From Mytilus trossulus (lineage: Eukaryota), in contig NC_086386.1 of NCBI RefSeq assembly GCF_036588685.1, forward strand, positions 48,484,001-48,548,000: a DNA stretch of 64,000 nucleotides. Reading direction: 5' to 3'. Numbering within the stretch: position 1 is the first letter of the stretch; each line of letters opens with the position of its first letter. A model generated the notes under the pieces. The model was not told the origin of the DNA and did no database searches. It saw only the letters and a program-made list of their open reading frames with translations. The position numbers were made by a program, and so were the translations under genes. This document shows positions 3,001 to 58,717 of this stretch, one piece after another.

Positions 3001-4826
3001 TATTACAGTCAACTCGGGATTCATCATTATACGATGCTGGAAAATTACTATTGTCAAATTCAATTTCAAATGCATAGATTCTTGTTCAATAAGGATAAGA
3101 TCTGTGTGTGAAACGTCTGATATATACCATGATTGATTTATTCATTATTGGTCTTTAACGCCACTTTTAGTTGCTATTTCATGGCGACCAGCTATATGAT
3201 GGCGAAGAAAGCTGGTGCACCAAGAGAAAACTACTGACATTCGGCTGGAAAATGGTAAAACATAGTTTTGGAGTAGCCAAAAATTGTCAAACATAGTTTT
3301 AGAGTCGGACCAAGCTTCCAACTCTGAAATCAGCAATGAAGCAATAATTTGTACTAATGAAAGAAGCTTCTTTATCACTTGATCCAGTTTTCGTTTGATA
3401 GATAGTTTTGTTTTTTATCTGTCAAATCGAATAGAGCAAGACGTTTTAAAAAGAGTTTAAGAAAAAAAAAGAACAGTAGCCGAGTCATAGCACATTTGAA
3501 TACTTTTTTGTTGTTGATATGCTAGCTCGTTGAGAGAAAAAAAACTGAGTGAAAAACACCCGCATATATATCTGGCTTCCATTCAAACCAAACTAATAGC
3601 TTTTGGTTATTTATGTTGCTAGGTTGCTGTCTCATTGACGTTTATCCCATATTTCATATTGATGCACAATTCACAAACATATATGTATATATATATTAAA
3701 ACTTTGAAGTTAAGGTATTATGTCATGCGTAAAAAAGTGAGAGAGAAAAAGCAAAAGAGAGACTCAAAGAACTAAATAGAAAAAGATGTTAAAGAATGAC
3801 CTGTTTGGTTGCTCGTAATCGGTTGTCTATGAATATAGTTCCTGTCATTTTTTATGTAAGTGAGCTATTTTTGCTGTGTTTTATGTTTTGCATATAAAAA
3901 TCTTTAATGGCTAAAAGTTTTATTCATATTATTTCTTTAATAGTGAGCTTTATGATATGTTTTTATGCTTTAGATCATTGAGCCATTGAGGGACTACGTG
4001 TCAAAGTTGTACGAAGGGCAACTCTGCCTTTTTAAGCAGCGAATTTTCGCATGTGACTTGTGACTTCATTTCATATCTAACCAGTTCGGATTAAGTTAAT
4101 TTTTAAGCATACACCAAGACAAACATCACCGTTTCAACTCTTGTTTCATTCTACAGACTGTGTACCTCAAATGTTTTATCTAAAAAAAAATGTCTTCACT
4201 GGGAACCCCAGAGCTGAAACATGCACAACTCAGTTTAGCAGGGACAATACTCTGTACCCCCTTTTTTCACATTTTTGCACATTGGATCTTTCAAGACACT
4301 GTCAGTGGTTCACGATATTGATTGTCAAAGACGTGTCTATTAAGTTAGTGAATGCTGCATTCGAATAGAGACTGCTCGATTCATTCTCGAAAAATTTGCA
4401 ATAGTCAAAAATAGAAAACACCCTTTTCTATTCAAAATAATATTCTACATTATAAGTTGTCGACTTTAAGTTAGTAACGGAACTTAAATAATTTGAAATA
4501 TTTAACATAGTACAAGACTTTTACAAAGGTATCTTCTAAAAACTTAGCGTTCTTCTACTGTGGTTGATAAAAGTTGAAAGCTAAGTTGCTTTAACTTTCT
4601 CCCATTCTTTTAGGGATTACAATGTTACAAAGATTAAGGTTCACGTCCAGTGGCACATATTACAGTCATATCGGGATTCATCATTATACGATGCTGGAAA
4701 ATTCCTATTGTCAAATTCAATTTCAAATGCATACATTCTTGTACAATAAGGATAAGATATGTATGTAAAACGCCTGATATATACAATGATTGAGTTATTC
4801 ATTATTGGTCTTTAACGCCACTTTAA
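1..4826. repeat. Large-unit tandem repeat (~1.74-1.76 kb unit, ~2.8 copies, runs off the window start)
   Basis: Sequence at 1 recurs at 1743 and ~3505. Copies 1 and 2 are nearly identical; copy 3 is more diverged, has a deletion near 4527 and ends at ~4826. Confidence 0.95.
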
Positions 4827-18300: not shown

Positions 18301-21300
18301 AAAATCTCTAGCAGGTTTTATCGTGCCTTAATTTCTAAATATTGATCGTTGACAATGTAATTTGTTTGGGATATTTTTTTAGCAATATATTGATATGAAA
18401 CTTACATAAATATTGTAGCCAGGCCCAAGCTGTATTCTACGGTGAAATATTTCCACTACAACAGCCTTAATCTTAGATGCCCCATAGTCATCACTTCTCA
18501 TAGTGACATCAATGTGAAAGGCACAAGGATCAGGGAATCTTGTCGATTTAGTTAGAGTATATCTGCAGGCTCCATTGTGATAAATGAACTGTCCATCATA
18601 AGTCTTGATGTAGGCATTACTAAAGGCTGAGCAGATACATTTGCCTATTAATGAAAGAAACAATAAAGATAAATATACAAAATTGCCTTTTTTTCCTTAA
18701 GGGGTTCTTATAATTTAGAGTCAGTGTTCATTTATGGTTATGGTTAGGTAATGGTGTGGTTTTAGTGCTAGTGTTTGGATTGGATACGGAATGGGTTATG
18801 GTTAGGTTTAGGTTAAGAATAATTTAGTATTGCTAAGAAGACACTAGATCGGCTATGTCTCAAATTTTCTTTGTATCCTAGGTAGACATCTTATCAGATC
18901 ATAGAAATATTTCCTACATGTATAGATTATAAACATGTATATTATAATTCATATCTTCACAAATACAAAGTTTTTTGAGCAACATGGATATGATAAAAAT
19001 TATTAAGTATTCATAATTATTACTATTTATTGGATACTAATTTTTAACCGGTTTGTAAGCAAACTTTTTCAAGTCCACAAATTTCAAAGTATCCATGAAA
19101 AATATTTTATTTTGAACTTTCTAGACCAAGATTTTCATATGGCTTAAGCAGACCCATAACAAAGTGTAGACAATTTAAGTTCAAACTTTATACTCACGTT
19201 CACATTTTCTATGTCCGTCCCCTACAAATCCTCCTCTACACACACAGCGACCATCAACACATTCTGAGTTTTGAGCACATTTCACACCTTTACAGAACCC
19301 TTCAGCTGTAAAATAAAATATTCAGTAAAACACTTGAACTTCTTATTTCATATTTAATCAATTGAAAAATTCTTCAAATAACAAGAAAAAATCTTTGATA
19401 GATGAAAAATCATGACTTATTGACAATTTCATTTTTGTAAATAATTGTTTATTACTGCAAATTGATTGTTCCTGGAATAAGAGTACATGCAATCAATTTT
19501 CCAACAATTTTGTCTCAAAAGAGTATGTATCCAACAGGGCTTCCAAAACGGTCATATATTCCAGTCATTTGTATAATGTCCGGTAAATGACGGATGGGAA
19601 AAGCATGAAACGGTCATATACTTTTTATTTTTCAAGGCTTTTTCGGTCATTTTAATATAATTCACGATCTTTTTGCCCCAACATTTTGCCTTTAACAGCC
19701 ATATATTTCCGGTCATAAAAGTGACATGTTGATTAATTACTATCAAAACAACCCTTACTTCAATACTTTCTAATTTTAATCAAGGCTAATTAGTTGTTAC
19801 TTTCGAACATTTCAGCGGTTTGTATCAAATTGATTTAGTCCAAAAGATCAAATTCATAATAAATACATTTATAAACTTGATTTCTTGAAACATTTTAAAA
19901 AGGTTTAACATGAAAAAATCGTCAGAACTACGTTGTATGAACAAGAACACGTGTGCGCATGTGCAGAGGTGGGAAATTCAATTATGCATCCTACATTTCT
20001 TCAAAATTCTAAAACTATCATTGATACCTGTACCTAACGTTCATTTCAAGTATTTTGTTGAAGAAATAACGTGGAAAGAGCTTCTTCGCTCAGTCGTGCT
20101 ATGTAAACGTACACGGATTTTATGTATCCCTTTATGGTCCATGTTTTACCATTGTCAAGTCAACATCCGGTTTTGAAAAATGTGACTTTAAAAAACGAAA
20201 ATAAAGTTCTTGACAACGTCATTTTGCACAATTCAAGAGTCTAATGCAGATATGAGCACGCTGATGTGCACACTTTGAATGATGCAATCCCAATTTTAAC
20301 AGTTTATGTCAGAACATCAAATTCATATCAAAGTAAAGTTTAATATCGTTTTTAATCTAATGTCAATCATTGGGATGGCCATCTGATTACCATAATTGCC
20401 TTTTGTGACTTAGTCTTGGGGATTAAAATTCGGATCAGATATAAAATGTCCGGCTGGCTCAGAAAATTTTTGGAAGCCCTGGTATCAAATAAAAACACCA
20501 CTTGATATAACCTCATTTATAATCCTTGAAACAAATATTTATGTCACATGTGTTCTTTGTTTTCTAAATTCTAAAACATAGCATGATGGCAGTTAGCATT
20601 CTTAAATTAAGTCAAATATACATATGAACATATTTTAGATCAGATATCAATCTTATAGACACAATACTATAAAATTCAATATTAAAATGCATCAAACATG
20701 CTTTTTATCTCTTTTCTGTTTTGATAATTTTTAGTTGAATTTTTTGTACTTACGATCACAGAAATAATATCCATCTCCATGGTAACCTTTTCTACATTTA
20801 CATTTATAATCCTCACACATGGCGTTCATGTGACATCTCTTTCCTCCACAATAATCCAAAGCTGAAAAAATCAATAATTAAATTTAATTCCATTGAAGCC
20901 TGCAATTGCTTGGAATATTTGTGTAATATATTTTTTTTTGCCTCAATTGCATCAGGATAAATTCAACAAAATTTTAATATTCATAGCATTTAAAGTAATA
21001 AATACATGGCTCATCTTTGACAGAACTTGCTGTAATTGAACCAGTTCAATGAGGTTGTATCCAAAGACATTTTAGAATACTTATGTTTAAAAATTATAAC
21101 TCTGTAGTTCATAATATTTTCTAAATTTTACTTACGTTCACATTTAAAGAATGGGTTGCCATGAAAACCAGTATGACAACTGCACCTGCCTGCCACACAA
21201 TGAGCATTTTCTACACATAGTTTACCACCACAGAAAGCTGGAATTGAAGCATAAAAGAATATAAATTTTATGCATCAATCTCAATCAGTCATTTCACTAA

Positions 21301-30300: not shown

Positions 30301-33300
30301 GCGAGCTACTGCTCACTGATGATACCCCCGCCGCAAGTGGATAATATTAATAGTGTAAAAATATGCAAGTGTTCGGTAAACAGGAAGTTGTCCAGTGATG
30401 AATCTGAAAACGCATCACACGGTATAGCTGACTTATATAAATCCTGAAACCAAATTTCAGAAATCCTTGTATTGTAGTTCCAGAGAAAAATGTGACGAAA
30501 ATTTTCAACTTGGCTATCATGTGTAAAATCATACAAGTGTTCGGTAAACAGGAAGTTGTCATGTGATCAATCTGAAAATGCATCACACAGTATATCTGAC
30601 TTAGATAAACCCTGAAACCAAATTTCAGAAATCCTTGTATTGTAGTTCCTGAGAAAAATGTGACGAAAATTTTCAACTTGGCTATCATGTGTAAAATCAT
30701 ACAAGTGTTCGGTAAACAGGAAGTTGTCAAGTGATCAATCTGAAAATGCATCACACGGTATAGCTGACTTAGATAAACCCTGAAACCAAATTTCAGAAAT
30801 CCTTGTATTGTAGTTCCTGAGAAAAATGTGACGAAAGTTTCATGGGACGGACTGACTGACGGACGGACTGACGGACGGACAGACAGAGGTAAAACAGTAT
30901 ACTCCCCCTTTTTTAAAGCGGGGGTATAATTAAAGAAAAATACTTACGCTCACAAAGTATGAATCCATTTCCATGGTAACCACCGATACATTGACAAGTT
31001 TCATTGCGACAGACAGAAAATGGCATGCAAGGTTTGCCTCCACACAGAGCTGCAAAAAAAATAAGAGTGTAATTTTACATAGAATTACACAGAGCAAATG
31101 CAAGGATCAATCAGTGCATACCACAGGTTCAAAGAATTTCATTTTGAAGAATAGATACATTTTCAGAATCACTATTGCTCTGATCATATCTGAGCTTTAA
31201 CATTATGAGTTTTTTCATGTATTCAATATACTAATAATTCATGATTTTATGGTTTAATCCTTTAATCAACAGGAAGTAATGACCACCATTATTCATAAAC
31301 ATGTTTAAAGGGGCACTAGCTACGAGATATTTAAGGTGGTACCCAACACCTTTACAAAAATTAATTTGGCTCGTTTAATTTTCATGAAGTTTCGACAAAG
31401 TATTTACTTTGACCCTCTGACAAAAATATGAAAGTTTTAAAACTTTTGAACAAACTGTTTTATCAGAAAAATTATACTGGTTATATAGCAGTTTGACAAA
31501 CAGTAATTTGATCATTAAGAAGCTTAATAATATTGCCTTCATAACACAACGTAATTAAAGCGTTTAGTTGATTTTACAGAGTTATCTCCCTGTAGTGTTA
31601 GGTACCACCTTAAAAAATCTGAAGTGTGATTTTTTTCTGTTCAGTCAATAATGAAAGTGAAATAGTGAAATAACAATTCCCTTATTGCAGCCAAAAAGGT
31701 TCAATTTTGTCAAATTACGCTAAGAAACATTAATAATTTGTTATTCATTTGCAAGTGAATGAGTCGATCCCTTTAAATCCGTATTCATGTGAACTTCAAT
31801 TTAACCCCTAGCTAGAGATTGACAACGCATGCATTGAATGTGTACTGCCTATTCAAAGAAAAAGAATGTCTACAATGAAAATGAAACTACAGTAAATCAT
31901 TTGATTACTAATTCGATTCACATAAAATCATTCTTATACAGTTAAAAACAATGAGAAACATCTATTTTTAATCTATAAAATAAAATCAAACAGACCTATG
32001 AAAATCCATCACGTGTTGGTTTCATCTATTCATATCTTTATTTATGTTTTTATCGCTTATATGGTCATATGAGGTCACATCAATAGTTTATTAGATGGCC
32101 TCTAGACTAAAATACACACGAAACGAACCTAAATATTATCTACCCCTTGCTCTGTAAACTGTTTATTTTAGACTTTTGATAGTTTGGAAAAATGTTTCAC
32201 ATTGTTATCAATCAATTATGAGAATTTAAGTCAAATTGGTGACCATGGATTTGACAGCTAGTGCCCCTTTAAATTCATCATATGCAAAAACTCACACTTC
32301 ATTTTCCTACCTCTAAAGTAAAATAGCTATCCCCATAGTAATAATGATTTCCTTTTCACTTTAAATTAGCAGCCTCTGCAGGTTTTAAATTTTAAATAAT
32401 CAGTAACCATCACCATAGTAACTGTGTACTACAGCACTTTAAATCAACAGGGTCTGCAGGTTCTTACTTTTATATTACAATAACAATCACCATAATTACC
32501 GTCTGTGAATTCAAATTTTTAATCAACACACAAAATACATGTTTTTATCTTTACACCGGCTGTAACTATCACTATAGTAACCATGTTTCAATCCACATTA
32601 ATAATTTACACACTTACCCTCACATTGACTGTAACCATCACCATAGTAACCATGTTTACATCCACATTTGTAATTCACACACTCAGAATGTTCAGCACAT
32701 CTCTCTCCATTACATATCCCCAACACTAAAAAAAAACAAAAAAAAACATGAGCTCAAACATTGAGATGTCCCTCCTGCTGCAAATAATCTATTCTAAAGT
32801 TCTATACACTCCAAGGTCAAGGTTATATAAAGCTTGTCAGTAGCTCATGTATAGTTAACAAATTAATTTACAAAATATTTTACAGGTCAATGTTTAAAGC
32901 CGGCTGGATTTTTCCAACCATTTCCGAGAAAATCATACCTGATCATATGCATGAAGCACAAAAATAAGGTCAAATTTAAAATGAGGAAATGTGGTGTGAT
33001 ACTATTGAGATAATTACCCATAAAAAACAATTTGATGCAGATGTAGAGAAGTATATTTTATATTCACTGTAATTATATTTAGAGCTAAATGTCTTACAGC
33101 AAATGGATAGATATACCTGTCAAAACAAATTATTTACAAAATATTGTTGTCCTGTCATTTCTTTATGTATTAATGATGTTTCAAATTTACCAATTGTAAA
33201 CTTTGACATAAAATTGTACAGTGATAACAGTTCAGGAAAAGTAGGGAAAAACGTTATCTGGGGTGTTTATTGTCCTACACAACAAATTTATGGTCAAAGT

Positions 33301-36300: not shown

Positions 36301-39300
36301 ATAACAAAATTAATGGACATGTTTTGATTATATAATACCAGTATAGTTCGTAGTGAAAATTTCTTTAAAAGAAAAATACTAATGTTCCCTTCAGTACTAA
36401 GAATTTTGTTTTACTACAAAACAAAAGCTTTTATCACATGAAATTGATCCCTCGTTTCATGTGTAGTCATTACATTGAAGGGCTACTCTCATTCGAGCCA
36501 ACCTTTTGGATAGATTTCTTCATAACGACAGTTTTCTTTTCTTGACCATCGTAAATGAAAAAGTTGAGACGTAAAACTAGGCTTAAAACACGTGAATCAC
36601 TCAAACGACTTTAAAAACGTCTTCCTAATCAATTACCGATATTTAAGTCAAAGGATAATTAAAGTTTTAAATCCGAGATTTTTCTTGCTTTTGGACATTT
36701 TTCGTCACAACAACAGCTTTCTTTTCTAAACTATCTTTAAAAGCGGAGGAGACGTCAAAAGTTTGCTTCAAACACGTGCGTCGCAAAGTGGTAAATAAAT
36801 TCTGTATGTGACATTTAGCAGAAGCCATTTAACCATATCATTTTGTCAAACAATTCAATCAACACCTTTATTAATATAGTCCTTTGTTGTCGATAGCTAT
36901 AAAATGCAATCAGCTGATTATTGATTTTCTGTCCAAACCTTAATGAGGTCAAGGTGAATTCCGAGTATTGTCTGATCGGGTAAAGTCCGAGAAACTCGAA
37001 AAAAGTAAATAAACAAGATGGAGGAAAATAAATCGTTCTATATATTTCTTTCGCCAAATTCTTTCGCAAATGACGAATTTTTATCGCCACAATTATTATT
37101 TTTTCGCAAATTGCGAAAATGGCGACCGCCAGCGGAAACCCTGTTTACAGCAGATTCCATTGAGTGTGTAGCGAAAGATTGTATCTTTGGTTAGCTTGCT
37201 TGTTAGCTGAACTGTATAGTCTTTATTAGGTAAGGTATACTACCCTCCTTTCAAAGTAGCATAGTCCAACAGACAAATAGATTGGTTTTCTGTCGTACTA
37301 GTCTATTCTTAAAGTAGGGTAATTTACTTAACCTAACAATGACTCCACTGTTCAGCTAACAAGCAAGCTAACCAAAGATATTACCTTTGGCTACACACTC
37401 AATGGAATCTGCTGTAACTATAGAACCAATATTTCTTTGTTGGGAACCACAATTTTTTCTTCTTTTAAGTTATGTCCTTTCTATTGACAGAATTGGAACA
37501 TACCTGTACATGTGATGCCATCTCCATAGTAACCAAATTTACATTTACACTGGTAATCTTCACAGACAGCATACTGATGACAAACTCGACCTCCACATAA
37601 AGATAGAACTAAAAATATAAGTTATATAAAAACTGTTAATATATTAGAGCAGGCTTGTCACAAATCTTTATCTCGTGCCTGCTTTTTAGTGCTTTAGGTC
37701 ATCAAAATAATTAAAGTGTTCCGATTTTCCAGCTTTCATCTTCCCAGTGGGTTTGGGTAAAACAATATATCTTGTGCTTATCTATTTTTAATTTACAAAA
37801 AAATAAAAAAAAGAAGATGTCCTTGGTACAGTTGAATGCATTGATGTAATCACTGAAGTGTTGATACTAAGTCACAGTAATAGTTCTATGCTGGATTTAA
37901 ATGTTTGTTGTAGTGAAACAGCACACAGATTTAGAACTAAATATATCTTAAAACAACAATGAATATTTAACATTTCAAAGTTTTCATTGATAAAGTAGCA
38001 ATTTTCATACATATATAGTAAGCGTATTATTCCTTATCAAAACATTGCTTTCTTATACAACTATTTAATATACCTTCACATTTTCTAAGTCCATCACCAT
38101 GGTAACCTGGACCACACACACAATGTTCATGTGGACTACACACAGCACTAGCCACACATATTTTCCCATTACACAGTTCTAGAAATGACAAATAATGTTA
38201 CATATAAACATTAGAGTTTCATTGTTTATACTAAGATCTTTTCCAAAGAATAATAATTTTCAAGTATGATTAGCCACACATATTTTCCCATTGCACAGTT
38301 CTAACAAGAGGCTGTCACAACGACAGCAAACCGGATTTATTAGCATTTATTTGTGTCCTGGCAATATCACAAAAACCATTACTGATGATTGGTGAAAGTG
38401 AAAATCGTCAATATCAAATTCAACCTCTATTTTGTCATCAGTATCAACATATTAAAATTTGAAAAGCTTAGATTGAATGGTTCGTGAGTAAATGCAACAA
38501 CGTGAATGGAAACACCATTTTACGATCTTTCAAGAACCATAACTCCTGAACGGTAAAAGTTAAAATCGTAATTATTGAACTTGACCTCTATTTTGTCATC
38601 AGTAACAACATAATAAAATTTGAAAAGCTTTTGTTGAATGGTTCATGAGAAAATGCACGGACACTACTGGAAACACCATTTTTCAATCTTTCAAGAACCA
38701 TAACTCCTGAACGGTAAAAGTCAAAATCGTCAATATTAAACTTGACCTCCATTTAGTCATCAGTAACAACATATTAAAATTTGGGAAGCTTTGGTAGAAC
38801 AGTTCATGCGTAAATGCACGGACACGACTGGAAACGCAATTTTACTATCTTTCAAGAAACATAACTCCTGAACAGTAAAAGTCAAAATCATCATTATTGA
38901 ACTTGACCTCTATTTTGTCATCAGTAACAACATATTAGAATTTGAAAAGCTTTGGTTGAATGGTTCATGAGAAAATGCACGGACACGACTGGAAACACCA
39001 TTTTTCAATCTTTCAAGAACCATAACTCCTGAACGGTAAAAGTCAAAATCGTCATTATTGAACTTGACCTCCATTTTGTCACCAGTAACAACTTATAAAA
39101 AATTGGGAAGCTTTGGTAGAACAGTTCACTGGTAAATGCACGGACACGACTGGAAACGCCATTTTTCAATCTTTCAAGAACCATAACTCCTGAACGGTAA
39201 AAGTCAAAATCGCCATTATTGAACTTGACCTTCATTTAGTTGTCAGTAACAACATATTAAAATTTTAAAAGCTTTGGTTGAACGGTTCATGAATTAATGC

Positions 39301-42300
39301 ACGGACAACATTTGATTGCTGCCCGCCCGCCGAGCATCCCCAAATCAATAACCGACATTTTTGTCACAAAAATCCAGTTAAAAATGACATATAAACATTA
39401 GAGTTTCATAGTTTTGACAACTAGCAGACATAACAGAAAGAGGGACACAAGGACTAGAAACAATCATGCCCCTCTATTTATGTAAATTGGGCAAAAAAAT
39501 ATATACAGCTTTAAAATTCTAGAAACAGTATGTCAGAATCTAATACAGTATTTTGTTTTATCTACTAACTTTTTTTCAAAAGAAATGGTGTATCTTTTAT
39601 TACTGTATGAAATCGATGTTAAAACAAGAACCTGTCCAAAGTACATAGATGCACTGCACTATCATTTTCCATGTTCAATGGACCGTGAAATTGGGTAAAA
39701 ATCTAGTTTGTCATTAAAATTAGAAAGATCATACCATAGGGAACATGTGTACTAAGTTTCAAGTTGATTGGACTTCAACTTCATCAAAAACTACCTTGAC
39801 AAAAAACTTTAACCTGAAACTCACACTTTTATTTTCTATGTTCAGTGTACCATAACATTGGGGTCAAAAGTCTAATTTGGCTTTAAAATTAGACAGATCA
39901 TATCATAAGCAACAAGTGAACTAAGTTTCAAGTTGATTGGACTTCAGCTTCATCAAACACTACCTTGACCAAAAACTTTAACCTGAAGCGGGACAGACGG
40001 AAAGACCAGATTACATAATGCCCCTCTACTGGGGCATACAAATTATAATGACTTCTTCTTAATTGGAAATAACTTCAAATATATTTTGTAAACTTACTGG
40101 TGCAAGATTTATATCCATCACCACGGTAACCATGCCTACAATGGCACTTGTAGTTGTCACACACTGCATTGGCTGTGCATACTTTACCATCACACAGTCC
40201 TTCCTCTATAAAATAAAAATACACAAAAAAATCTTTTTTATTATTCATGACACCATTTTATTCAAGTATTTGAAAAGAAGTATGTTTTCAAGCAGTATAG
40301 TTTTTGCTGTCATATAAAAATTATAAATATTGAACTTGAACTACCAACTTTTTATTCTATGTTTATCTTTATTTCTTAACCATTACCATTTTTCAAATTT
40401 ATGACATTTATCATAACTTTTTACTATTTGATTTCTAACATCTCTCATGTTTCCAAGTGTAGAGTCCATCAAAACCTTTTGTAAATTTCCTTTTTAAACT
40501 GATTTGTACAATGTATCAATATTCACTTACGTTCACACTTCAGAAAAGGATTTCCATGGTAACCATTTTGACAGATACATTCATTTGCATCACAAAAAGC
40601 ATACGCTGCACATTTTCTATTTTTACAAAGTTCTATAAACATAAAATTGCATATTATTATCTATAGGTTACTTTATCGTTTCCTAAAAAAAACCTGCTTT
40701 AAATCATTGAATCCTATAAAGTTTAATATTCTATGTTATAAATGGTATGAATGTGTGAGTAACATCTTTATAATTATATTTTTTGAAATTTTTGTTTGAT
40801 CATACATTATGTATGTGCCTGTTCCAAGCCAGGAGCCTGTAATTCAGTGGTTGTTTTTTGTTTCTGTGTTACACATTTGTTCTCAGTTCATTATTTTGTA
40901 CATTAATAAGACTGTTAGTTTTCCTGTTCAATGTCTTTTACATTGATCATTTCAGGACCTTTTATAGCTGATGATGCAGTATGGGTTTAGCTCATTGTTG
41001 AAGGCTGTAGTGACCTATAGATTTTCTGTGTCATTTGTTCTCTTGTGAAGATTTGTCTCGTTGGCAATCCCACCACATCTTCTTTTTAAAAAGTATAACT
41101 AAAACTCTTACTTTCACATTTTGAATATCCGCTTCCTACATAGCCTGTGTCACATACACACTTGTAATCAAAACAGTGGGCGTTGGCTACACATGATTTC
41201 CCTCCACAAACACTTAATGCTGAAATGTAAACATACAATTGTAAATAATAAAGTCTGCATATTGAAATTGATGCAAGAAAACATTGGAATGCTCAAAGGG
41301 TTATTAATCAGAAGTCAGTTAAATGACCCTGTTGTATAAGTGTATTTGGATATTCTCAGGAGTATTAATATTGCCAAAAATATGACTCTTAAATTTACAA
41401 TAACTCTGAAAAAAAGTGCTGATATACAGACAAACTTATTGGCAGACAAACACATAAAGGGACAGACAGAATGGCAAACTTTTACATGGAGCAGCGACAG
41501 ACAAACAGAAATAAACTAGTATACCCTCTTCTTTCATAGTGTGGATATAGTTATTGCGAATCTCATATATAAAGTAAATAGTAATCTAAACTTACGTTCA
41601 CAAAGCTTTGTTCCACAACCATGGTAACCTGGTTTGCACAAACATCCCCCTACATCAGAACAAAAGGCATTTTCCTTGCAGATTTTCCCATTGCATAATT
41701 CTAAAAAACATTTTATATTTTATCAAACAAAACAAAATTTCAAGTTCTTTTAATACAGAAACCCATTGGGAAATAAATCTTAAAATAGCCCTTCTGGTTT
41801 TCTTCTTTTAATGGTATTGTAAAGTAAGAATGTGTTCTATGCATCTCTACCCTAGGATAAGAAAACTTTGGCTCAGTATTTGACACTACATCTAAGGAAT
41901 ATATGACTGTGGCTGTACTAAACTGTATTTACACTAACTCTAGGAAATTAAAGTCCTCAATACTCTTCAACTGCCTATTTCATTTGGCCTTTTTATTTAT
42001 TTTTTAAATCAAGCATCACTCAGTCTTTTGCAACAGTAAAAACATTCAAATAATTACTGAATTTTTATTGGCTGATAAAAAATTTCCCCAATATCAAACA
42101 TTCTTAACTTGAAAAATACAAATAAGGATATTTAATATTCATGGTTTCATTTTTAACAAAAAAAATACTTTCTCAAATAAAAAGAATAACAAACAAAAAA
42201 AAAACAAAAAAAAAATAGAAAGATCACATCCTCAGCAAACCTAATTAAACCATATGATATTTTTTTCTTACTATCATAGCATATACAAACTGTGTTCTGG

Positions 42301-45300
42301 ACAAAAAAATTTAAACGGGTTTGATTTTGACTTCAATTTCAATTTTAAATAATCATGCTATACATTATTCTTGTTTTTAAATACTTACTTTGACATTGAT
42401 TGTAACCATTGCCAAGGTAACCATGTAAGCATTGACACTGATAGTCTATACAAGCAGCATTAGTGGTACATTTTTTACCTCCACACAATGACAATACTGT
42501 AAGAAAATCATACACGAGTCAAAAAATAATCAAAACTTTAGAAAAACCTCGAGCTCCATTCTCAATTAAAATAATATGATTTTTTTTAAATATTTTCTAT
42601 TATTGTAAAAAAAATGTTTTATAATATAAGATAAAACTATTCTTTTGTTTTGACTTCATTTTAATGAAGTTTCATTAATAACGTACATTTCAGCATCAAA
42701 TTTGCTAATGTATGAAAATATAAACAGATCATTTGTAGCTTTCTGAAAATTAAACTACATTCACAAAAAACTGACATCTGTGATCAGACATTTAAATCTA
42801 TATGGTCATTTTGTTTATTTTTAATATTTCTTACCTTCACATTTTTTTGTTCCATCACCATGGTAACCCTCTTTACACATACACTGACCATTCTGACATT
42901 CAGAATATTCCACACATCGTACATTGTTGCATAAAGCTAATGACGAAAATAAAATTGTTTCTTACATACTTGATTATTATCATTTTTCAATACACTCTTA
43001 CAGTTGGAAACTATGGAACAGTTTTTGTGTGATTTATTTTCTTGCTTTTATACTGAATTATGCATGTCTTTCATTTTTTTCTTTTGATAATCATTCCTCC
43101 ATATTATATATTAACAAAAGTTATAGTTTACTCTTTCTTTATAAATGACTTGAGTTTTGGTTTTTATCTTTCCAAAATCCATGTAAAATGTATTCTGTAA
43201 TTGTATTTGATTTCAATAGTATAAAATGTTTTTTAAATATGATACAATTTGAGTGAGTTATTTCCCTTGGTCACAATTAAGATTTTGGTATTTGACTAAT
43301 TTAAATTTAATTTCAAACAAATCTAAAAAGATATAATTTAACCGTATTAATAAATAAAGCAAGGCTAAATGAAATTAAAACTTTTCAGAAAATAACTTAT
43401 TCAGAATAAAGAAATTTTAAATTTTCACAAATATCGGTGTAAGGGAAATACAAAGGGAATACTTACGTGTACACACATAATATCCATTGCCATAGTAACC
43501 ATAATCACATACACACTGGAAGTTATTACACTTTGCGTTTAATGCACACTGTCTGCCATCACAATATTCAATAGCTAAAATGAAAATTAATTAAATGCCC
43601 TTTTATATCCATGAAAATGTATAAATATCTTTTAATTAATATCAAGAAAATTAGTAATCTGATTTAAATAATTGACATATATTTTTTGCCAAAGCTAATA
43701 AAACTACAAGCAGGATACCAAATATAACAGACCTTATCACAATACACCTTATCGCTATTTGTCCGCCATTACTGGATATCACACAGGTTCCCTTAAAATT
43801 TTGACGTCATAAAACAAAATATCTGATGCCATAATGGAAAAGTGATTGTTGTATGCGTCAAAAGGTCAAGCAGCCGGGTCGGCTGGCCGAGTAGGCTAAT
43901 AGTGATAAGATGTATATAATACATGGTTCAGAAAGCCCAACAGAAAGCCCCTTGCCTTTGCCACTTCATCAAAGGAAAACAAAAACTTGTCAAATGTATT
44001 TAAATATTTGTCCATTTTCAGCTCAATATAAATAGCAGCTGAGAATTGTTTGTGAAAAATGAAGCAATGGTAACCACTTATATTATCTGAGTGTTTATAA
44101 ATTGATCTACCTATCTCAGTTTTCCCAATACTTGTATAAATTTGAATTTTTAGATTATAAATGAAATCAGTACGAGTATGTCAAAACACAAACTATACAG
44201 CAATCAATTATTAAATATCATGTATAAAGTGTCCAACATTTCCATGTGGAAACAACTATAATACAAGTTAGATGACAATAGGTTACAATTCCTCTTTTTA
44301 GTGTGCAGTCATGTATATATAGGATCGTGTTTAAGATTGGATGGCTGGGTAATAACCTTTTTTCTTAAGGATATCTTGTGACATGGACTATAAATATGAG
44401 CTTAAAATTTCTTGTCATGACCTTTTGTTGTACCTGAAATGAGTTCATAAAAAATACACACTGAAGGAGGCAAATTTATGTATTCCTCATGCTACTTTTG
44501 ATTTATGGGAGATGAAAATATCTTTTCATCTAAATTGTACTCATCTGTATTATTCTAAATTAACAAATCTCCACTATATATAAGATACCTGCATATTTTT
44601 TGTAAATTTGTCACTGATCAATATCAAGCATGTGCAGATATCCTAATCAAGTCAATTTTAACCCATAAAATTTTGTTACTAAAAATAGCATAGGTAATTT
44701 CCTATTTTACTGTTCACAAATAGTCAATGTGATTCCCCTTAGAAATCTGAAAGTTATTCTTACCTAATCTAAAATACTATATGTGTAGTAGTACCAACCA
44801 AGTAAGTGGAATTTACTGCAATTGCTTAAACTAATAACTGTTCATTATGTTACAACTCTTCAGTCTTGTAATGTTGTTTAATTTCTAGTTGTAGCAGAAA
44901 AATTCAGTCTTGGATATTGAATTGTTTTATTTTTAAATTCTATGAAGTTTTATTTACAAAAGGTTTGCATCATCTTATATTAACTTTTATTTTATTGGAT
45001 AAAAATATCTAACATTATGTTGTATTGTTTAGGTAGCAGTATATCTTCCTTATTATATCAAATCCCAAATAATCATGTGACTTGTTTCTTTAAATAGAAC
45101 AAAAACTTCCCAGGTTTGTAGGGAACTCCCAAATTCTTAGTCATCAGTTTTATCTGGAAAAGTCGAAATCTGTTCATATGAGCATAATTTTAGCAGGTAA
45201 GAAGATTGTCTAATGAAAATCATAACTTAGTATCATTATTTGTAAGAAAAAAGAAGTAAATTTTCTGTATTTAACTATTCCAGGCAAAATTATAAATTAA

Positions 45301-51300: not shown

Positions 51301-53996
51301 GCCTGTATAGCAGTCAACCATAATTCTATTAAAATTGCAGTCTTATGGAGTGTTGTTGTGGAACTGATATGCATCTTTATTGTCTAACAGAATTTTATTG
51401 AGAATTTTATTGAGAAAAAATTGTATTGACTATAAATTATAACTACTCAAGTTGAGAATTTAAAAAAGTTTTGAATTGAAAATTGTATCTTTTTAAAATT
51501 AACATACAAAGTTAAAATAAGAAGGGTGATGTTTGTATGATATTTCTTTTTGTTTTTGATAGTAAAACATAATATTAGAAACATGAATATCTATATGATT
51601 TCTTTAAATTGTATGGGTTATGTTAATTGTTCAGTGTTCTTTGAAATAAAATTTTCAATGAAATCAAGAGGCTTGCTCTTGTTTTTTTTATTTTTTGATG
51701 AAACAATGAAATTTACAGACTTTACTTACGTGTACACCTTGTCAGTGGGTTCCCATGGAAACCATCTCTACACTGACACTGTCCATGTACACACACAGCA
51801 TACTTAGCACATTTTCTGTTGTTACAGAGTTCTGAAAGATTGAAAGAAAATCTGAAGAAATATAAACTGGTGTATTTCATACATTAATAAGTTAAGAATA
51901 TAGTCAAATGAAACCCTGGCTTTTTCACCAAGATGAATTTCAATAAGTCTAGTTTAGTTTAAACATATATTTGTTTATAGTGGATTGGGAAACAAGTTAA
52001 TATTTATGGCAACTTATATTAATCCCTTTCTACTTCGCAGGTGCGAGTGCTGCTTTGTAGCGGCATTAGCCTGCTCTTTTCAAAATCTACAAGGGTTTCT
52101 TTTACGTGCAACAGATATGGCTCTCTCTTAACAGGGGTCAGCCATTTATTGTCCCCTTCCGACGTACTATCATCATTTCTCAAGACCATACTCCGAATGG
52201 TGTCAAGAGAGAGCCAAAAATTCAGTTCCTTAACCAGGAACCTTTGTGTTAGTAGTCCATTAATATGCTAACAACTACACGTCAGCTTTTTTCTAGTGTG
52301 GTACATATACATGTACAAAAATCACATTTGCTGCTTCATTTATTAATAAATTAATGATTCAGTTGATTAAAAACACTGGCTATTTCACCATGATGCATTT
52401 TAACTTTCACCAAAATGACATTTCCAGGTTGAAGAATAATTCTGTAGATCTAAAGTAACAAAATTTATGATTTTGTTCATCAACATTTCAAATGCATATA
52501 GGTATAAAAATAAGACAACATACAAACCTTCACATTCTATGTAACCACTTCCAACATAGCCATCCTTACATACACAGTGGTAATTAATACACTTGGCATT
52601 TGGTGCACACTGTTTTCCGCCACATAAATCTTTAGCTGGAAAATCAAAATGATAGTTTAATGAAAAAATTGGTTTATCTATTTATATCAATTTAAGTTGT
52701 AAAAGTTGATGACATGCACCTTTTCAGACCCCACATTAAAATCCAGACTTGCAGACAGATCTTGAACTTTTAGGTAGTAATCTGCTCCTATGCATATAAT
52801 GTTGATAGGACAAAAAACCACCAGTGTACTAGACCAAAATATCGATTAGAGTTTTATAATAAATATGAAAATAAGGAGATGTGATATGATTGGACTGCTA
52901 AAGGCATCAAATACTATTTACTACATCAGAAATGCAACAGAAAGAGGTATAAAGACTAGCAGAATTGTTATTGGGAAAATTATTTGGAAAATTTACCAGC
53001 CCTAAAATTGGTCCAACATCTATTTGTGAGAGTCATTAGTGATATCAATTATATTTTCAAGCTTGCTCAATAGTTTTTGCATTTCAAAACTATTCACAAC
53101 ATTCAGAAGTGTCAAACCATTATGAAAATACAATATTTCAACGGCTAAAGTAAATCTGGTTCAACTCTTTTCATCCCAGTTGTGATTTTTTTGTTGTTGT
53201 GTTTGGCTGCTTATGGCTAAAATAACATGTCAATATTTCCTGTAGTTCTAAAAAAAAATATAGAGAAAAAATCACTCAGCATGAAAATATTTTGGTTTTA
53301 TTCAATTCTAAAACAATGTTCAAAAGGAAGATTGACAAGACTTACTTTCACATTTAATGTACCCATTTCCATGAAATCCATCATTACACTGGCACGTGTC
53401 TTTATAACAGTATGCATTCTCTTCACACTTTCTACCATTACATAGTGCTTAAAAGAGTGAAGAAATAATTCATTCTTAAACTACTATTTAAATAACTTAA
53501 AGAAAAGGTAAGGTTTTGTTGTTGATTATTTTAAATGTTACTTCAATGCCATACTTATTTGTCTTTAAAAATTGTTTACAATTGGAGATTTATATAGAAA
53601 CTTGGGGAAATAGTTTAGCTGTTGAGACTTTGACCTTTGACACAGTAACCTCAAATTCAAATAGGTTTTTGAGGGTTGTTTTTCTCAGCAAGAGGAATTA
53701 ATCTCCATTTGATAAAAAAAAAATATATATAAAAAGGTAAATAAAATTATAAAGCTTCAGCTGTTAATTCAAAATCTATAGAAAAAATAATGACAAATAA
53801 AGTTACACAAATAATAAGTAACAAATAAACAGAACAAAATGTATGTTCCAATATAACATATTAAACCTAGCTACTCTTCAAAACTTACAATCACATTTGA
53901 CATATCCATCTCCAAAGTACCCAGGTCTACATGTACATTGGTAGTTCATACAGATGGCTTTAGGTGCACAGTGTTTACCATTACATACATCCACAG
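6370..53996 (-). CDS. Multi-exon gene, 5' incomplete: at least 30 EGF-like repeats + VWD + C8 + TIL + TILa/EGF (zonadhesin/FCGBP/tectorin-like extracellular protein)
   Basis: 36 coding exons with canonical GT-AG boundaries and compatible phases, joined by hand into one open frame (4421 coding nt). The first exon seen has a good acceptor, so an upstream exon lies above 53998. Confidence 0.9.
7757..7972. mobile_element. MITE, Tc1/mariner-type (TA flanks); second copy at 34663-34881
   Basis: TA-CTGT..ACCAACTTATTTTCGC ... GCGAAAATAAGTTGGTTTACAG-TA. Confidence 0.8.
8010..8205 (-). CDS. Exon: TILa/VWC-like + EGF-like
   Basis: LAKSYTTEDCSETVKCQMVHERPEFRHTQIGVQCHRNATCSLKDGIPACMCLGGLVGDGYKVCQQ; phase 0 to 1. 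Confidence 0.85.
9252..9457 (-). CDS. Exon: TIL domain
   Basis: MKCPLNSVYSSEVTACPADCMDRTPTTCDSGLPFSEGCTCKAGYYRSGHECVPASQCGCYCPDRHYIP; phase 1 to 0. Confidence 0.92.
10106..10234. other. Assembly gap (N run) in an intron
   Basis: Run of n; flanking exon phases are compatible without an extra exon. Confidence 0.99.
10395..10690 (-). CDS. Exon: C8 domain
   Basis: CIGTLKKSAKCTLTQ...ICGYM...PFRKC...MYDACRRDVC...ACVYVQQMAMECLQRG...FRYHC; phase 2 to 1. Confidence 0.9.
10920..11099 (+). repeat. 5' LTR (180 bp)
   Basis: TGTCGAG...CTCCACA; 2 mismatches to the 3' LTR. Confidence 0.97.
11104..11121 (+). promoter_or_regulatory. Primer-binding site complementary to the tRNA-His 3' end
   Basis: TGGTGCCGTGACCAGGAT, 4 nt after the LTR. 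Confidence 0.85.
11122..16674 (+). pseudogene. Disrupted gag-pol polyprotein of the Bel/Pao element
   Basis: Broken by frameshifts near 12675 and 13230, stops at 14728, 15475, 15913 and 16363, and a 57-bp duplication. Confidence 0.93.
16898..17077 (+). repeat. 3' LTR (180 bp)
   Basis: Direct repeat of 10920-11099, followed by GTATA. Confidence 0.97.
17520..17839 (-). CDS. Exon: VWD domain, C-terminal part
   Basis: ENGYLHYLPLSL...CGLHVWWNG...LTGLCGNCNGKYVDDF (VWD GLCGN motif); phase 0 to 2. Confidence 0.92.
18034..18140. repeat. Small fold-back (inverted repeat) element
   Basis: AGATAA..TATTGTATTT.AA.CTC.AACGGCATCAA pairs with TTGATGCCGTT.GAG.TT.AAATACAATA..TTATCT. Confidence 0.6.
18406..18644 (-). 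CDS. Exon: VWD domain, N-terminal part
   Basis: KCICSAFSNAYIKTYDGQFIYHNGACRYTLTKS...; phase 1 to 0. Confidence 0.92.
19198..19305 (-). CDS. EGF exon 30 (108 bp, atypical)
   Basis: EGFCKGVKCAQNSECVDGRCVCRGGFVGDGHRKCE. Confidence 0.9.
19535..20481. mobile_element. Non-autonomous hAT-type element
   Basis: TIR CAGGGCTTCCAAAA / TTTTGGAAGCCCTG; 8-bp TSD GTATCCAA / GTATCAAA. Confidence 0.85.
20754..20861 (-). CDS. EGF exon 29 (type A)
   Basis: LDYCGGKRCHMNAMCEDYKCKCRKGYHGDGYYFCD. Confidence 0.9.
21136..21237 (-). CDS. EGF exon 28 (type B)
   Basis: FCGGKLCVENAHCVAGRCSCHTGFHGNPFFKCE. Confidence 0.9.
22468..22575 (-). CDS. EGF exon 27 (type A)
   Basis: DGFCDGHICSKNAQCDNFLCKCQKGYYGDGYTRCD. Confidence 0.9.
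22700..23105 (-). repeat. Mussel-type interspersed repeat; related copies at ~29285-29385, 40815-41085, 46990-47440 and 50225-50417
   Basis: Shared motif GAGAGTTGTCTCATTGGCA.TCATACCA.ATCT / AGATGTGGT..GA.TGCCAATGAGA. Confidence 0.65.
23473..23574 (-). CDS. EGF exon 26 (type B)
   Basis: LCNGKKCVRNAKCVHNMCVCDEGYHGDGYYRCE. Confidence 0.9.
23637..23824. mobile_element. MITE (TA-CTGTGGATTCAT...ATGAATCCACAG-TA family); other copies at 28369-28541 and ~29890-30060
   Basis: Terminal inverted repeats with TA flanks; several copies in the window. Confidence 0.75.
24139..24246 (-). CDS. EGF exon 25 (type A)
   Basis: KKFCGNKTCAEHSECLKYQCQCSKGYTGNGYRKCD. Confidence 0.9.
24429..24852. mobile_element. 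Probable MITE
   Basis: Ends TAGGGCCGTAGTT..TTTTAGTTTTAC / GTAAAACTAAAA..AACTATGGCCTA. Confidence 0.6.
25323..25424 (-). CDS. EGF exon 24 (type B, extra Cys)
   Basis: LCSGKICAKYGLCIDGCCTCQPGYHGNAYVLCE. Confidence 0.9.
25786..26048 (+). mobile_element. Non-autonomous Helentron/pearl-like element; longer copy at 39623-40040
   Basis: AACAAGA start, core repeat, GGAC/AGAC microsatellite, terminal hairpin CCC.CTA...TAGGTGGG. Confidence 0.7.
26346..26453 (-). CDS. EGF exon 23 (type A)
   Basis: DRFCDGKTCAANADCIDFKCQCKERFHGNGYTYCE. Confidence 0.9.
26494..26659. repeat. Minisatellite, ~54-bp unit, ~3 copies
   Basis: AATTATAATACATGTATAACCTA.TGTAATGAATAACGAATTTATTCCCAAAAT repeated. Confidence 0.85.
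26926..27027 (-). CDS. EGF exon 22 (type B)
   Basis: LCNGKKCHDKAFCYRGQCTCNTGYHGDGINRCE. Confidence 0.9.
27048..27178. repeat. 50-bp minisatellite interrupted by a SINE
   Basis: ATAGTTTAATCTATTAAACTAACCAAGTAGAATTATCTAATGGTTAAACT repeated; resumes at ~27505. Confidence 0.85.
27179..27504 (+). mobile_element. tRNA-derived SINE
   Basis: A box TGGTGTAGTGG, B box GGTTCGATTCC, AAACT tail, TSD AACCAAGTAGA. Confidence 0.88.
28012..28119 (-). CDS. EGF exon 21 (type A)
   Basis: DGICGGKICAPNARCDNFTCVCMNGYTGDGFHRCD. Confidence 0.9.
28612..28785. mobile_element. Probable Tc1/mariner-type MITE
   Basis: TA-CAGTGTAGCCTGCCTAAT..ACAC ... GTGTCGGATTAAGCAAGTTACAATG-TA, imperfect TIR. Confidence 0.55.
28848..28949 (-). 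CDS. EGF exon 20 (type B)
   Basis: LCGNHRCVEHSTCVRNRCECVTGYHGDGTYKCE. Confidence 0.9.
29552..29659 (-). CDS. EGF exon 19 (type A)
   Basis: LTRCGGHTCHFNAECMDFKCHCKYGYTGDGYQNCV. Confidence 0.9.
30288..30931 (+). mobile_element. Non-autonomous Helentron-like element with three ~168-bp internal repeats
   Basis: AACAAG start, repeats at ~30353, 30521 and 30689, (GGAC/TGAC)n microsatellite, terminal CCCC...GCGGGG hairpin. Confidence 0.8.
30948..31049 (-). CDS. EGF exon 18 (type B)
   Basis: LCGGKPCMPFSVCRNETCQCIGGYHGNGFILCE. Confidence 0.9.
31309..32268. mobile_element. TTAA-flanked non-autonomous TIR element (Kolobok-like)
   Basis: TTAA-AGGGGCACTAGCT ... AGCTAGTGCCCCT-TTAA. Confidence 0.85.
31335..31609. 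mobile_element. Nested TTAA-flanked MITE; second copy at ~51068-51293
   Basis: TTAA-GGTGGTACC.AACAC ... GTGTTAGGTACCACC-TTAA. Confidence 0.85.
32618..32725 (-). CDS. EGF exon 17 (type A)
   Basis: LGICNGERCAEHSECVNYKCGCKHGYYGDGYSQCE. Confidence 0.9.
33333..33434 (-). CDS. EGF exon 16 (type B)
   Basis: YCNNRKCVHSANCVDGKCLCKQGYHGDGYYKCE. Confidence 0.9.
33823..34061. mobile_element. Probable MITE with CT-rich interior
   Basis: AGGGGGAGGACAGGG ... CCCTGTCCTCCCCCT inverted ends within TA runs. Confidence 0.65.
34232..34339 (-). CDS. EGF exon 15 (type A, extra Cys)
   Basis: VGTCGGKVCCKNAECLNYHCVCKKGFYGIGNDMCL. Confidence 0.9.
35281..35382 (-). CDS. EGF exon 14 (type B)
   Basis: YCGGHKCKEHSSCIGEECKCEIGYHGDGKVKCE. 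Confidence 0.9.
35530..35791 (+). mobile_element. Retrozyme-type (hammerhead-containing) interspersed repeat, partial monomer
   Basis: Contains a hammerhead core and resembles the mussel hammerhead repeat as I recall it; a more decayed copy lies at ~41845-42035. Confidence 0.7.
35707..35750 (+). ncRNA. Minimal type I hammerhead ribozyme, decayed stem III
   Basis: Stem I GTGTCA/TGGCGT, CTGATGA, stem II GTCT-TTTAT-AGAC, GAAA, TGCTTG, TC cleavage site. Confidence 0.75.
35936..37143. mobile_element. Non-autonomous hAT-type element
   Basis: TIR CAGGGTTTCC.CTGG / CCAG.GGAAACCCTG; perfect 8-bp TSD TTTACAGC; subterminal TTCGCC repeats. Confidence 0.92.
37148..37414. mobile_element. Long-TIR (~65 bp) MITE with TA flanks
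   Basis: CAGCAGATTCCATTGAGTGTGTAGC..TCTTTGGTTAGCTTGCTTGTTAGCTGAAC mirrored at ~37350-37414. Confidence 0.85.
37504..37608 (-). CDS. EGF exon 13 (type A, 105 bp)
   Basis: LSLCGGRVCHQYAVCEDYQCKCKFGYYGDGITCT. Confidence 0.9.
38074..38178 (-). CDS. EGF exon 12 (type B, 105 bp)
   Basis: LCNGKICVASAVCSPHEHCVCGPGYHGDGLRKCE. Confidence 0.9.
38303..39383 (+). mobile_element. Non-autonomous Helentron-like element carrying ~5.6 copies of a ~161-bp satellite
   Basis: AACAAGAG start, tandem monomers at 38400-39300, (GCCC)n microsatellite, terminal hairpin ATTTTTGT-C-ACAAAAAT. Confidence 0.85.
39623..40040 (+). mobile_element. Non-autonomous Helentron/pearl-like element with two internal repeats
   Basis: Same family as 25786-26048; ends ATGCCCC...GGGGCAT. 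Confidence 0.75.
40098..40205 (-). CDS. EGF exon 11 (type A)
   Basis: EGLCDGKVCTANAVCDNYKCHCRHGYRGDGYKSCT. Confidence 0.9.
40531..40632 (-). CDS. EGF exon 10 (type B)
   Basis: LCKNRKCAAYAFCDANECICQNGYHGNPFLKCE. Confidence 0.9.
41112..41219 (-). CDS. EGF exon 9 (type A)
   Basis: LSVCGGKSCVANAHCFDYKCVCDTGYVGSGYSKCE. Confidence 0.9.
41596..41700 (-). CDS. EGF exon 8 (type B, 105 bp, extra Cys)
   Basis: LCNGKICKENAFCSDVGGCLCKPGYHGCGTKLCE. Confidence 0.9.
42389..42496 (-). CDS. EGF exon 7 (type A)
   Basis: LSLCGGKKCTTNAACIDYQCQCLHGYLGNGYNQCQ. Confidence 0.9.
42835..42936 (-). CDS. EGF exon 6 (type B)
   Basis: LCNNVRCVEYSECQNGQCMCKEGYHGDGTKKCE. Confidence 0.9.
43467..43574 (-). CDS. EGF exon 5 (type A)
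   Basis: IEYCDGRQCALNAKCNNFQCVCDYGYYGNGYYVCT. Confidence 0.9.
46056..46682 (+). CDS. Nested gene coding exon 1: DZIP3/hRUL138-like HEPN domain
   Basis: EWDLLY...LDISLAGLILLNC...ISSLRQFKSDYLCH...EEFDALWDDL matches the family pattern as I recall it; donor GTATGT. Confidence 0.8.
46056..49638 (+). CDS. Nested gene: DZIP3-like HEPN domain + linker + beta-propeller, 533 aa; join(46056..46682,47598..47729,48024..48069,48842..49638)
   Basis: Four exons with GT-AG sites and phases 0,0,1 join into 1602 nt with no internal stop. An acceptor at 46035-46036 implies a 5' non-coding exon. Confidence 0.8.
47598..47729 (+). CDS. Nested gene coding exon 2 (helical linker)
   Basis: VDNREPERCPIQDLCSTLLELRNLIVSMDTRLRSSTSTTNEPNK; acceptor TTTCATTAG, weak donor GTACTA. 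Confidence 0.6.
48024..48069 (+). CDS. Nested gene coding exon 3 (46 bp)
   Basis: TTTCAG / ALGGVRCQSHTDSSL / GTAAGT; supplies the phase 0 to 1 shift the last exon needs. Confidence 0.65.
48149..48417. repeat. 45-bp minisatellite, 6 copies, intronic
   Basis: TCTATGGTGATACACCTACATGCCACATATCATAACACTTTGT(T/C)A x6. Confidence 0.95.
48842..49638 (+). CDS. Nested gene last coding exon: NHL-like beta-propeller
   Basis: ISDAVIMDDGKLVIC...PVKITAVNDSTVAV...LQDGSLYVSC...IQHVSSDG; repeated beta-blade pattern like bivalve TRIM/B-box C-termini. Confidence 0.8.
51730..51831 (-). CDS. EGF exon 4 (type B)
   Basis: LCNNRKCAKYAVCVHGQCQCRDGFHGNPLTRCT. Confidence 0.9.
51950..52281 (-). mobile_element. tRNA-derived SINE, same family as 27179-27504, more decayed
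   Basis: Reverse-complement similarity along its length; (AAACT)n tail. Confidence 0.82.
52528..52635 (-). CDS. EGF exon 3 (type A)
   Basis: KDLCGGKQCAPNAKCINYHCVCKDGYVGSGYIECE. Confidence 0.9.
53346..53447 (-). CDS. EGF exon 2 (type B)
   Basis: LCNGRKCEENAYCYKDTCQCNDGFHGNGYIKCE. Confidence 0.9.
53889..53996 (-). CDS. EGF exon 1 in window (type A)
   Basis: VDVCNGKHCAPKAICMNYQCTCRPGYFGDGYVKCD. Confidence 0.9.
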
Positions 53997-58672: not shown

Positions 58673-58717
58673 ACTTAAACCTTTAAATACTGAGATTATT
58701 TTGACAAATTAAAAAAT

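Follow-up and report, generated by a model that had tools for sequence, protein, structure and literature searches.

Introduction

In Drosophila dumpy, EGF modules are arranged in EGF-DPY-EGF units, in which the EGFs form part of a multi-module unit, and calcium-binding EGF modules are recognised by the hydroxylation and calcium motif C-x-D/N-x4-Y/F-x-C. In the EGF pairs of Notch and fibrillin, an aromatic residue from the first domain is packed against the second domain, and the twist depends on the length of the linker (PMC3415683). The survey by Bjorklund et al. (2006; PMC1553488) found that EGF arrays grow mostly by single domains, which fits domains that are bordered by exons.

Here, we describe a long array of EGF exons in the mussel Mytilus trossulus, first met in a stretch of 64,000 nucleotides (hereafter, the window; contig NC_086386.1, positions 48,484,001 to 48,548,000). 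Unlike the surveyed EGF arrays, this exon-per-domain array has a clean period of two and a weaker period of six.

A 36-module array of single-EGF exons

In all, a six-frame scan for six-cysteine modules identified 30 single-EGF exons (e1 to e30) on the minus strand of the window (53996..19198), each bounded by AG and GT and each in phase 1 at both ends (30/30). The first-pass annotation had described strict alternation of two module types, A and B, over e1 to e29, with exon lengths of 108 and 102 bp in turn and three 105-bp variants, linkers of three residues from A to B and of five residues from B to A, and introns unrelated to one another. These claims hold within the window: the 105-bp variants are e8, e12 and e13, and the introns have only dispersed repeats in common. 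The same annotation had every intron in phase 1, so that gain or loss of one exon is frame-neutral, and this phase extends to all exons. The probability of perfect alternation by chance is 1.3e-8.

The array is, in fact, longer than described. When 100 kb on each side of the window were taken in, seven further array exons were found upstream (83716..76270 in window-scale coordinates), of 102, 108, 105, 108, 102, 108 and 102 bp, typed B A B A B A B. The full array reads (BA)18 and then e30, and its typed junctions alternate in 35 out of 35 cases. It starts with B and ends with A, so that the two-module unit that had been proposed has the register BA rather than AB. The array features in the window are as follows.

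19198..53996, minus strand: e1 to e30, where e1 to e29 are the last 29 modules of the 36-module (BA)18 array
53889..53996, minus strand: e1 (108 bp, type A), with which the array enters the window; a 22-kb intron lies between it and the upstream B exon, to which it is predicted to be spliced
41112..43574, minus strand: e5 to e9 (A B A B A), with RNA contigs
38271..38303, minus strand: 33-bp intronic copy (97%) of the start of e12, from the intron repeat comparison
32403..32609, minus strand: decayed copies (two to three) of the 3′ half of e17 within an intron, from the intron scan
20754..20861, minus strand: e29, the last A module, whose counterparts close the scallop array and both pearl-oyster arrays

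The six invariant cysteines are present in all 30 window modules. Six cysteines in EGF spacing, a C-x-C and a Gly-aromatic C5-C6 loop place the modules in the EGF-like class, and EGF-like strands are present in predicted AlphaFold models of module pairs. Pfam assigned the five modules scanned to EGF_3 or EGF_MSP1_1 with E of 9e-5 to 2e-3, none of them reaching the curated cut-offs, and the solved sequences nearest to the module profile are the EGFs of NELL1, Notch and uromodulin. Neither a protein HMM nor nhmmer turned up further exons, intact or decayed, in the long introns of 8 kb and 22 kb. A one-exon query against the mussel's own genome gave 30 matches, 26 at this locus and four to lone modules elsewhere; no second array was seen with this query.

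Three modules have a seventh cysteine (e8 at 41700, e15 at 34339 and e24 at 25424), which could be free for cross-linking, and the CC of e15 recurs in the scallop modules P0009_68 and P0032_587. Furthermore, in e3 (52635), e11 (40205) and e30 (19305), another AG lies in frame six bases into the exon, a potential acceptor that would convert the five-residue linker into one of three residues. Partial intronic copies also occur outside the window: three in tandem at L005:3087-3258, taken from the lead-in EGF exon (acceptor and 5′ part), and one at L002:8616-8670, taken from the second array exon (5′ half).

Two module types

The odd- and even-numbered modules separate even when linkers and invariant cysteines are excluded: over the 26 variable core columns, none of 20,000 permutations reached the observed value. 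The split is independent of both linker length and exon length. Identity over the variable columns is 40% for A-A, 33% for B-B and 30% for A-B comparisons. In the protein tree of the window modules, the odd/even split falls on one branch (one change; modest support, 71/78), giving the A and B clades that the first-pass annotation had expected, and the DNA tree needs three changes as compared to 10 after shuffling. As in a domain repeat of period two, the peaks of the autocorrelation fall at multiples of two and the modules cluster by type. The earlier claim that the true repeat is an EGF pair is upheld by the two clades, by the similarity peaks at even spacing and by the occurrence of both types in scallop and pearl oyster.

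Each type has its own marker. The motif [NDK][YF] before Cys4, given as exclusive to A, occurs in 15/15 odd and 0/15 even modules inside the window; over the whole gene, it is carried by 16/18 A modules, since two of the three upstream A modules are without the aromatic residue. The motif G[YF]H, which follows Cys5, is a further marker and is found in 14/15 even and 2/15 odd window modules. Over this gene and four related proteins, leaving out two partial and two terminal modules, the His marker is present in 41/41 B and 3/42 A modules, and the hairpin aromatic in 40/42 A and 0/41 B modules. These type markers persist where other positions are 30-40% identical. With a classifier trained on the mussel gene, linker length agrees with the assigned type of the relatives' modules in all but one borderline case.

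The calcium and hydroxylation motif is absent from the modules (0/37), as are those for O-glucose and O-GlcNAc (0/37), while the O-fucose motif occurs in 2/37.

The terminal exon

19198..19305, minus strand: e30, terminal EGF, 108 bp; the AG six bases downstream would give 102 bp

The last exon before the VWD domain had been described as the only one to break the pattern. It does depart from it, with the five-residue linker typical of A and neither type marker, but it is likely a different module rather than a break in the alternation. In a joint tree, e30, the terminal module of the scallop array and two EGFs that precede VWD1 group together (85/88), and e30 is the best match of the scallop array's closing module. 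The pearl-oyster arrays are without an e30-like terminal module. We tentatively regard e30 as the probable lead-in EGF of the second VWD-C8-TIL block and not as a slipped member of the array; the assignment is tentative because its mean similarity is nearly equal to A (90), B (87) and pre-VWD (90) modules. A plain B module is not favoured, as e30 is without the His and groups with the pre-VWD EGFs.

Flanking domains and the complete gene

Upstream of the array, the gene comprises a DUF3011-like exon (just under the Pfam cut-off), which we take to be lectin-like, an EGF, VWD, C8 and TIL domains and an EGF-bearing exon. Downstream, VWD, C8 and TIL domains are followed by a last EGF. The two VWD-C8-TIL assemblies have every domain above the Pfam cut-off, and the GDPH motif is confined to VWD1. 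The downstream exons are located as follows.

18406..18644, minus strand: first exon of VWD domain 2, without the GDPH motif (Pfam VWD, E 5e-8; RNA contigs)
17520..17839, minus strand: second exon of VWD domain 2 (Pfam VWD, E 4e-11; RNA contigs)
10395..10690, minus strand: C8 domain exon (Pfam C8, E 2e-6)
9252..9457, minus strand: TIL domain exon (Pfam TIL, E 1e-7)
7993..8205, minus strand: last coding exon found, a Cys-rich segment and a final EGF_3-like module with an in-frame stop (provisional 3′ end)

The predicted product would have an estimated ~2,200 residues and is likely secreted. By eye, the N-terminus of scallop P0032 has a hydrophobic stretch; a candidate exon in the mussel gene is mismatched in phase. 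No MAM domain, mucin repeats or membrane anchor were found in the 22 ORFs scanned, with both the 5′ and 3′ ends of the gene provisional, nor are MAM domains, mucin repeats or a transmembrane anchor listed for the orthologous proteins. With no MAM domain or membrane anchor in the exons scanned, the gene product is probably not a mammalian-type zonadhesin.

The introns and surroundings of the gene harbour other elements. Two plus-strand ORFs that resemble a nested gene (45978-49638) lie between e4 and e5, in an intron of 8.2 kb; they give a HEPN_DZIP3 match (above cut-off) and then a weak beta-propeller match, and RNA contigs join e4 to e5 across this pair. The VWD2-C8 intron contains plus-strand ORFs that resemble a retrotransposon (11092-16674; gag, protease, reverse transcriptase and integrase, by eye), presumably of Bel/Pao type, interrupted by stops and frameshifts. 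A likely mobile element sits in the array's 22-kb intron: a plus-strand reading frame (58694-64000+) that stays open for 1,769 codons or more and has a DUF6589 match. An intron of the first VWD block holds a DDE transposase ORF of 690 residues (L004:481-2550, minus strand). Directly 3′ of the gene, a 1,740-bp unit without an obvious coding exon is repeated in ~50 near-identical head-to-tail copies (window 1-4800 and L011-L019, to ~83 kb downstream). Across these repeats, a related EGF-VWD-C8-TIL-EGF gene on the plus strand faces the array gene (L020, window-scale -96700 to -91700).

Transcripts and constraint

RNA contigs from three of four runs, belonging to two studies, contain e5 to e9 in order, joined at the predicted sites and with no intron between them; at their loose ends, they run into e4 and e10 with exact or near-exact matches. 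The fourth run, X2, gave no match to e5 to e9, which carries no weight. The spliced joints mark the three runs as transcripts. Each of the three yields one unbranched contig with joints between neighbours only, and no skip joints are listed in e4 to e10; contigs drop rare forms and 5 of the 37 exons are cleanly covered, and this is a statement on the main form only. RNA contigs also cover the exons of VWD domain 2, in a stretch of ~20 kb where the other matches are to intron repeats.

All 16 listed RNA differences are synonymous, while 19% are expected from the share of possible changes. On our own reading, there are two further differences at exon joints, one silent and one that changes a linker Pro to Ser (run X13). 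The modules are under strong purifying selection.

Relatives in bivalves and other taxa

A profile search found Pinctada P0006 and P0008 as well as Mizuhopecten P0032 and P0009 (a split gene model), and the B-to-A signature is limited to four of 314 collected proteins. The scallop array alternates in 13/13 typed junctions. Amongst the Pinctada gene models, P0008 has two AA neighbours in 11 junctions, and P0006 has two AA and two BB in 21, where one AA involves a half module that looks mis-spliced. Same-type neighbours, which the first-pass annotation had named as the case against its reading, are thus absent here (0/35) and from scallop (0/13) but present at 6/32 junctions of the combined pearl-oyster models, which are predicted proteins and may have dropped exons. 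Random loss of exons by the gene predictor from a 36-module gene would yield such counts with P of 0.12 and 0.26; true exon losses would yield them equally.

All arrays with a visible start begin with B and all those with a visible end finish with A. In a joint tree of 97 modules (bootstrap not settled), four changes per type are needed as compared to 31 after shuffling, and several modules pair across species, e.g., e9, e18, e28 and e29. To judge from these protein sequences, the alternating array is old and well conserved, being common to the mussel, scallop and pearl-oyster lineages. The homologue searches returned no mussel protein with an alternating array, and a search with the VWD2 exon gave only five fish zonadhesins.

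Oyster paralogues have four similar modules in a chain with three-residue linkers only, and the arrays of Hydra are homopolymers; the length differences between their isoforms are multiples of 33 residues, one of them a single module. These two cases imply that the fold itself needs no partner. In the oyster paralogues, the His also occurs in lone pre-VWD EGFs and, therefore, may act within the module.

Among 298 collected proteins, 42 have at least eight modules in runs, and in eight of these 42 the excess at lag 2 is above 10 score units. The bivalve alternating-array family accounts for three of the eight, and isoforms of two Hydra genes for many of the others. EGF arrays of period two thus recur. 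One unrelated protein of 1,345 residues, P0007, consists of EGF pairs with a two-residue inner linker and variable outer linkers; on this organisation, the case for an obligate EGF pair is stronger for P0007 than for the mussel gene.

Origin and maintenance of the alternation

Along the 36 modules, similarity has a peak at each even lag, the highest at six; the lag-6 peak was reached in 10/5000 shuffles within type, or in 136/5000 when allowing for the best even lag. It follows that blocks of two and probably of six exons were copied. Growth from one pair to 18 pairs needs at least five duplications, all of them even. In a simulation of size-blind duplication with geometric block sizes (p = 0.5), alternation was kept in 4% of the runs after four events; with longer blocks, it was kept in ~10% (p = 0.25) and 35% (p = 0.1), partly since the arrays shrink. 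The introns contain four sub-exon tandem duplications, alongside which there is no whole extra or decayed exon. Short duplications do occur, and their being partial in every case argues weakly against the retention of single-exon additions.

For the reading that we favour, the chances stand about even: the 36-module (BA)18 chain would result from repeated copying of two exons and be kept in register by two differently built junctions. Every exon brings along its linker and its hairpin tip as a set. In analogy to EGF pairs of known structure, the N-terminal linker and the hairpin tip would face the C5-C6 loop of the preceding module, such that A, with its five-residue linker and Tyr/Phe tip, may fit after the G[YF]HG loop of B, and B, with its three-residue linker and frequent Gly/Asn tip, may fit after the loop of A. 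Two fitted junction types are favoured because linker and tip are co-inherited and because the markers, by this analogy, lie at the ends that face a neighbour. Same-type neighbours are then likely to be disfavoured rather than impossible. The chain may constitute a spacer of roughly 100 nm, stiffened by disulfides and independent of calcium, between the two D-domain assemblies, possibly set in mucus or an adhesive matrix, with a lectin-like N-terminus. Such a spacer-bearing role in mucus or adhesion is suggested by the architecture and by reports on the oyster relatives.

A serious rival, to which we give somewhat less credence, requires no selection on neighbours: one two-exon duplication would have been followed by unequal crossing-over of like with like, and the pattern would have been frozen as exons and introns diverged, with selection keeping each module and perhaps the total length but not the type of the neighbour. 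Unequal crossing-over between like exons would yield even steps without selection. The argument for an obligate pair in the first-pass annotation, that the register never slips in frame-neutral exons, falls short because homology-guided crossing-over alone would move in even steps. Module order is partly shared with the mussel gene across orders, as shuffles did as well in 0/300 cases for P0006, 8/300 for P0008 and 5/300 for scallop; therefore, a large part of the array is old, and the alternation may have been put to the test by few events since the split. The same-type neighbours of the pearl-oyster models also agree with this history, as do the recurrence of period-2 EGF arrays in the unrelated P0007, P0141 and P0158 and the two-domain unit being the commonest unit of repeat expansion overall (PMC1553488). 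However, the type residues and linker lengths are fixed over three bivalve lineages while neighbouring positions drift, and short duplications strike these exons, yet no single-exon copy survives. The shared order is itself less firm for scallop: the best ungapped diagonal is with e18 to e30 (111 versus 104 for the next), but without the last three modules it scores 107.8 against 108.7 at another offset and becomes ambiguous. If the AA and BB neighbours of the pearl oyster are true, the finding is an ordinary relic of pair duplication.

The favoured reading of two fitted junctions has a bolder form, which we consider unlikely, where the junction fits are mutually exclusive, the chain is a calcium-free molecular ruler with a fixed register, and any odd-sized change in exon number, although frame-neutral, is removed by selection. 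Equally doubtful is that the junctions of such a ruler would be a His loop against an aromatic hairpin over a five-residue linker and an aromatic loop against a short hairpin over a three-residue linker.

Less probable still is an obligate unit of two domains, for which selection had originally been proposed, where A and B would fold or function only as a rigid pair, comparable to the compact EGF pair of Plasmodium MSP1, and a same-type neighbour would break the protein. The alternation here and in scallop (35/35 and 13/13), the complete arrays that all start with B and end with A and the lack of skipping in the e4 to e10 contigs are what one would expect of it. The six same-type junctions in the pearl-oyster models speak against it, and similar compact EGFs occur alone or in homopolymer runs elsewhere. 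Predicted structures of AB and BA, a comparison that had been proposed at first pass, give confident domains but a low pTM, and no preferred pair: pLDDT 85.6 and pTM 0.55 for BA, 88.0 and 0.54 for AB, from one construct each and with no paired rows. In the AB model, the strand appears continuous over the three-residue linker, and in the BA model it appears broken, with one model each as a thin basis. With the BA model as query, fold searches found nothing at E 0.001 (best Z 2.7) and are uninformative.

That exons are skipped in pairs by regulated splicing to tune spacer length, which phase 1 throughout would allow as any skip stays in frame, is very improbable, given the unbranched e5 to e9 contigs of three runs with joints between neighbours only, themselves a weak objection at 5/37 exons and with rare forms dropped.

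Comparison with known systems

The same VWD-C8-TIL-EGF blocks are found in bivalve proteins that are zonadhesin-like or IgGFc-binding-protein-like. Our comparison set consisted of Pinctada KAK3100182 and KAK3099984, Mizuhopecten OWF54870 and OWF54868 and a Magallana 'zonadhesin'; the database names of these relatives are automatic. KAK3100182 is alike in its whole architecture (lectin-like start, EGF, VWD, array, VWD), with VWD1 exons that are 59-62% identical. PMC6337334 places oyster zonadhesin-like members at the settling larval stage and in mucus.

The calcium-binding EGF pairs of Notch and fibrillin are likewise tandem and likewise conserve an aromatic residue in the C5-C6 loop, but here the C3-C4 hairpin is four residues shorter, no module has the calcium motif and there are two junction types instead of one. 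The C-terminal EGF pair of Plasmodium MSP1 is likewise a multi-module unit of EGFs; the BA model found no compact-pair match, which is uninformative. In contrast to Drosophila dumpy, all modules here have six cysteines and there is no DPY-type module.

Byssal EGF proteins (mussel Mfp-2 and scallop Sbp9; PMC6244088 and PMC9168380) are secreted bivalve proteins with long tandem EGF arrays as well, and the cores of the array are rich in Gly, Lys, Tyr and His, as theirs are. Unlike the byssal Sbp9/EC family, the array has no PCGGPC (0/37 modules), the ORFs scanned have no Calx-beta and VWD blocks flank the array. No literature on this gene or on alternating EGF exons was found, subscription journals being mostly outside the coverage of the search. 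The gene draws attention to a bivalve matrix protein that seems to be unstudied, with a calcium-free EGF spacer that is long and rich in His and Tyr.

Exon-bordered EGF arrays are the standard case of growth by one domain at a time, to which the mussel gene is a clean counter-example. As each module sits on its own frame-neutral exon, the gene can separate selection on junctions from a bias of crossing-over in domain super-repeats, and bivalve genomes and population assemblies make the comparison of odd and even copy numbers direct. The higher-order repeats of nebulin (seven domains) and of Ig and LRR proteins (two domains) likewise show peaks at multiples of the unit and duplication of blocks of several domains. 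The array is best read as a variant of these known higher-order domain repeats, unusual for EGF arrays with one exon per domain.
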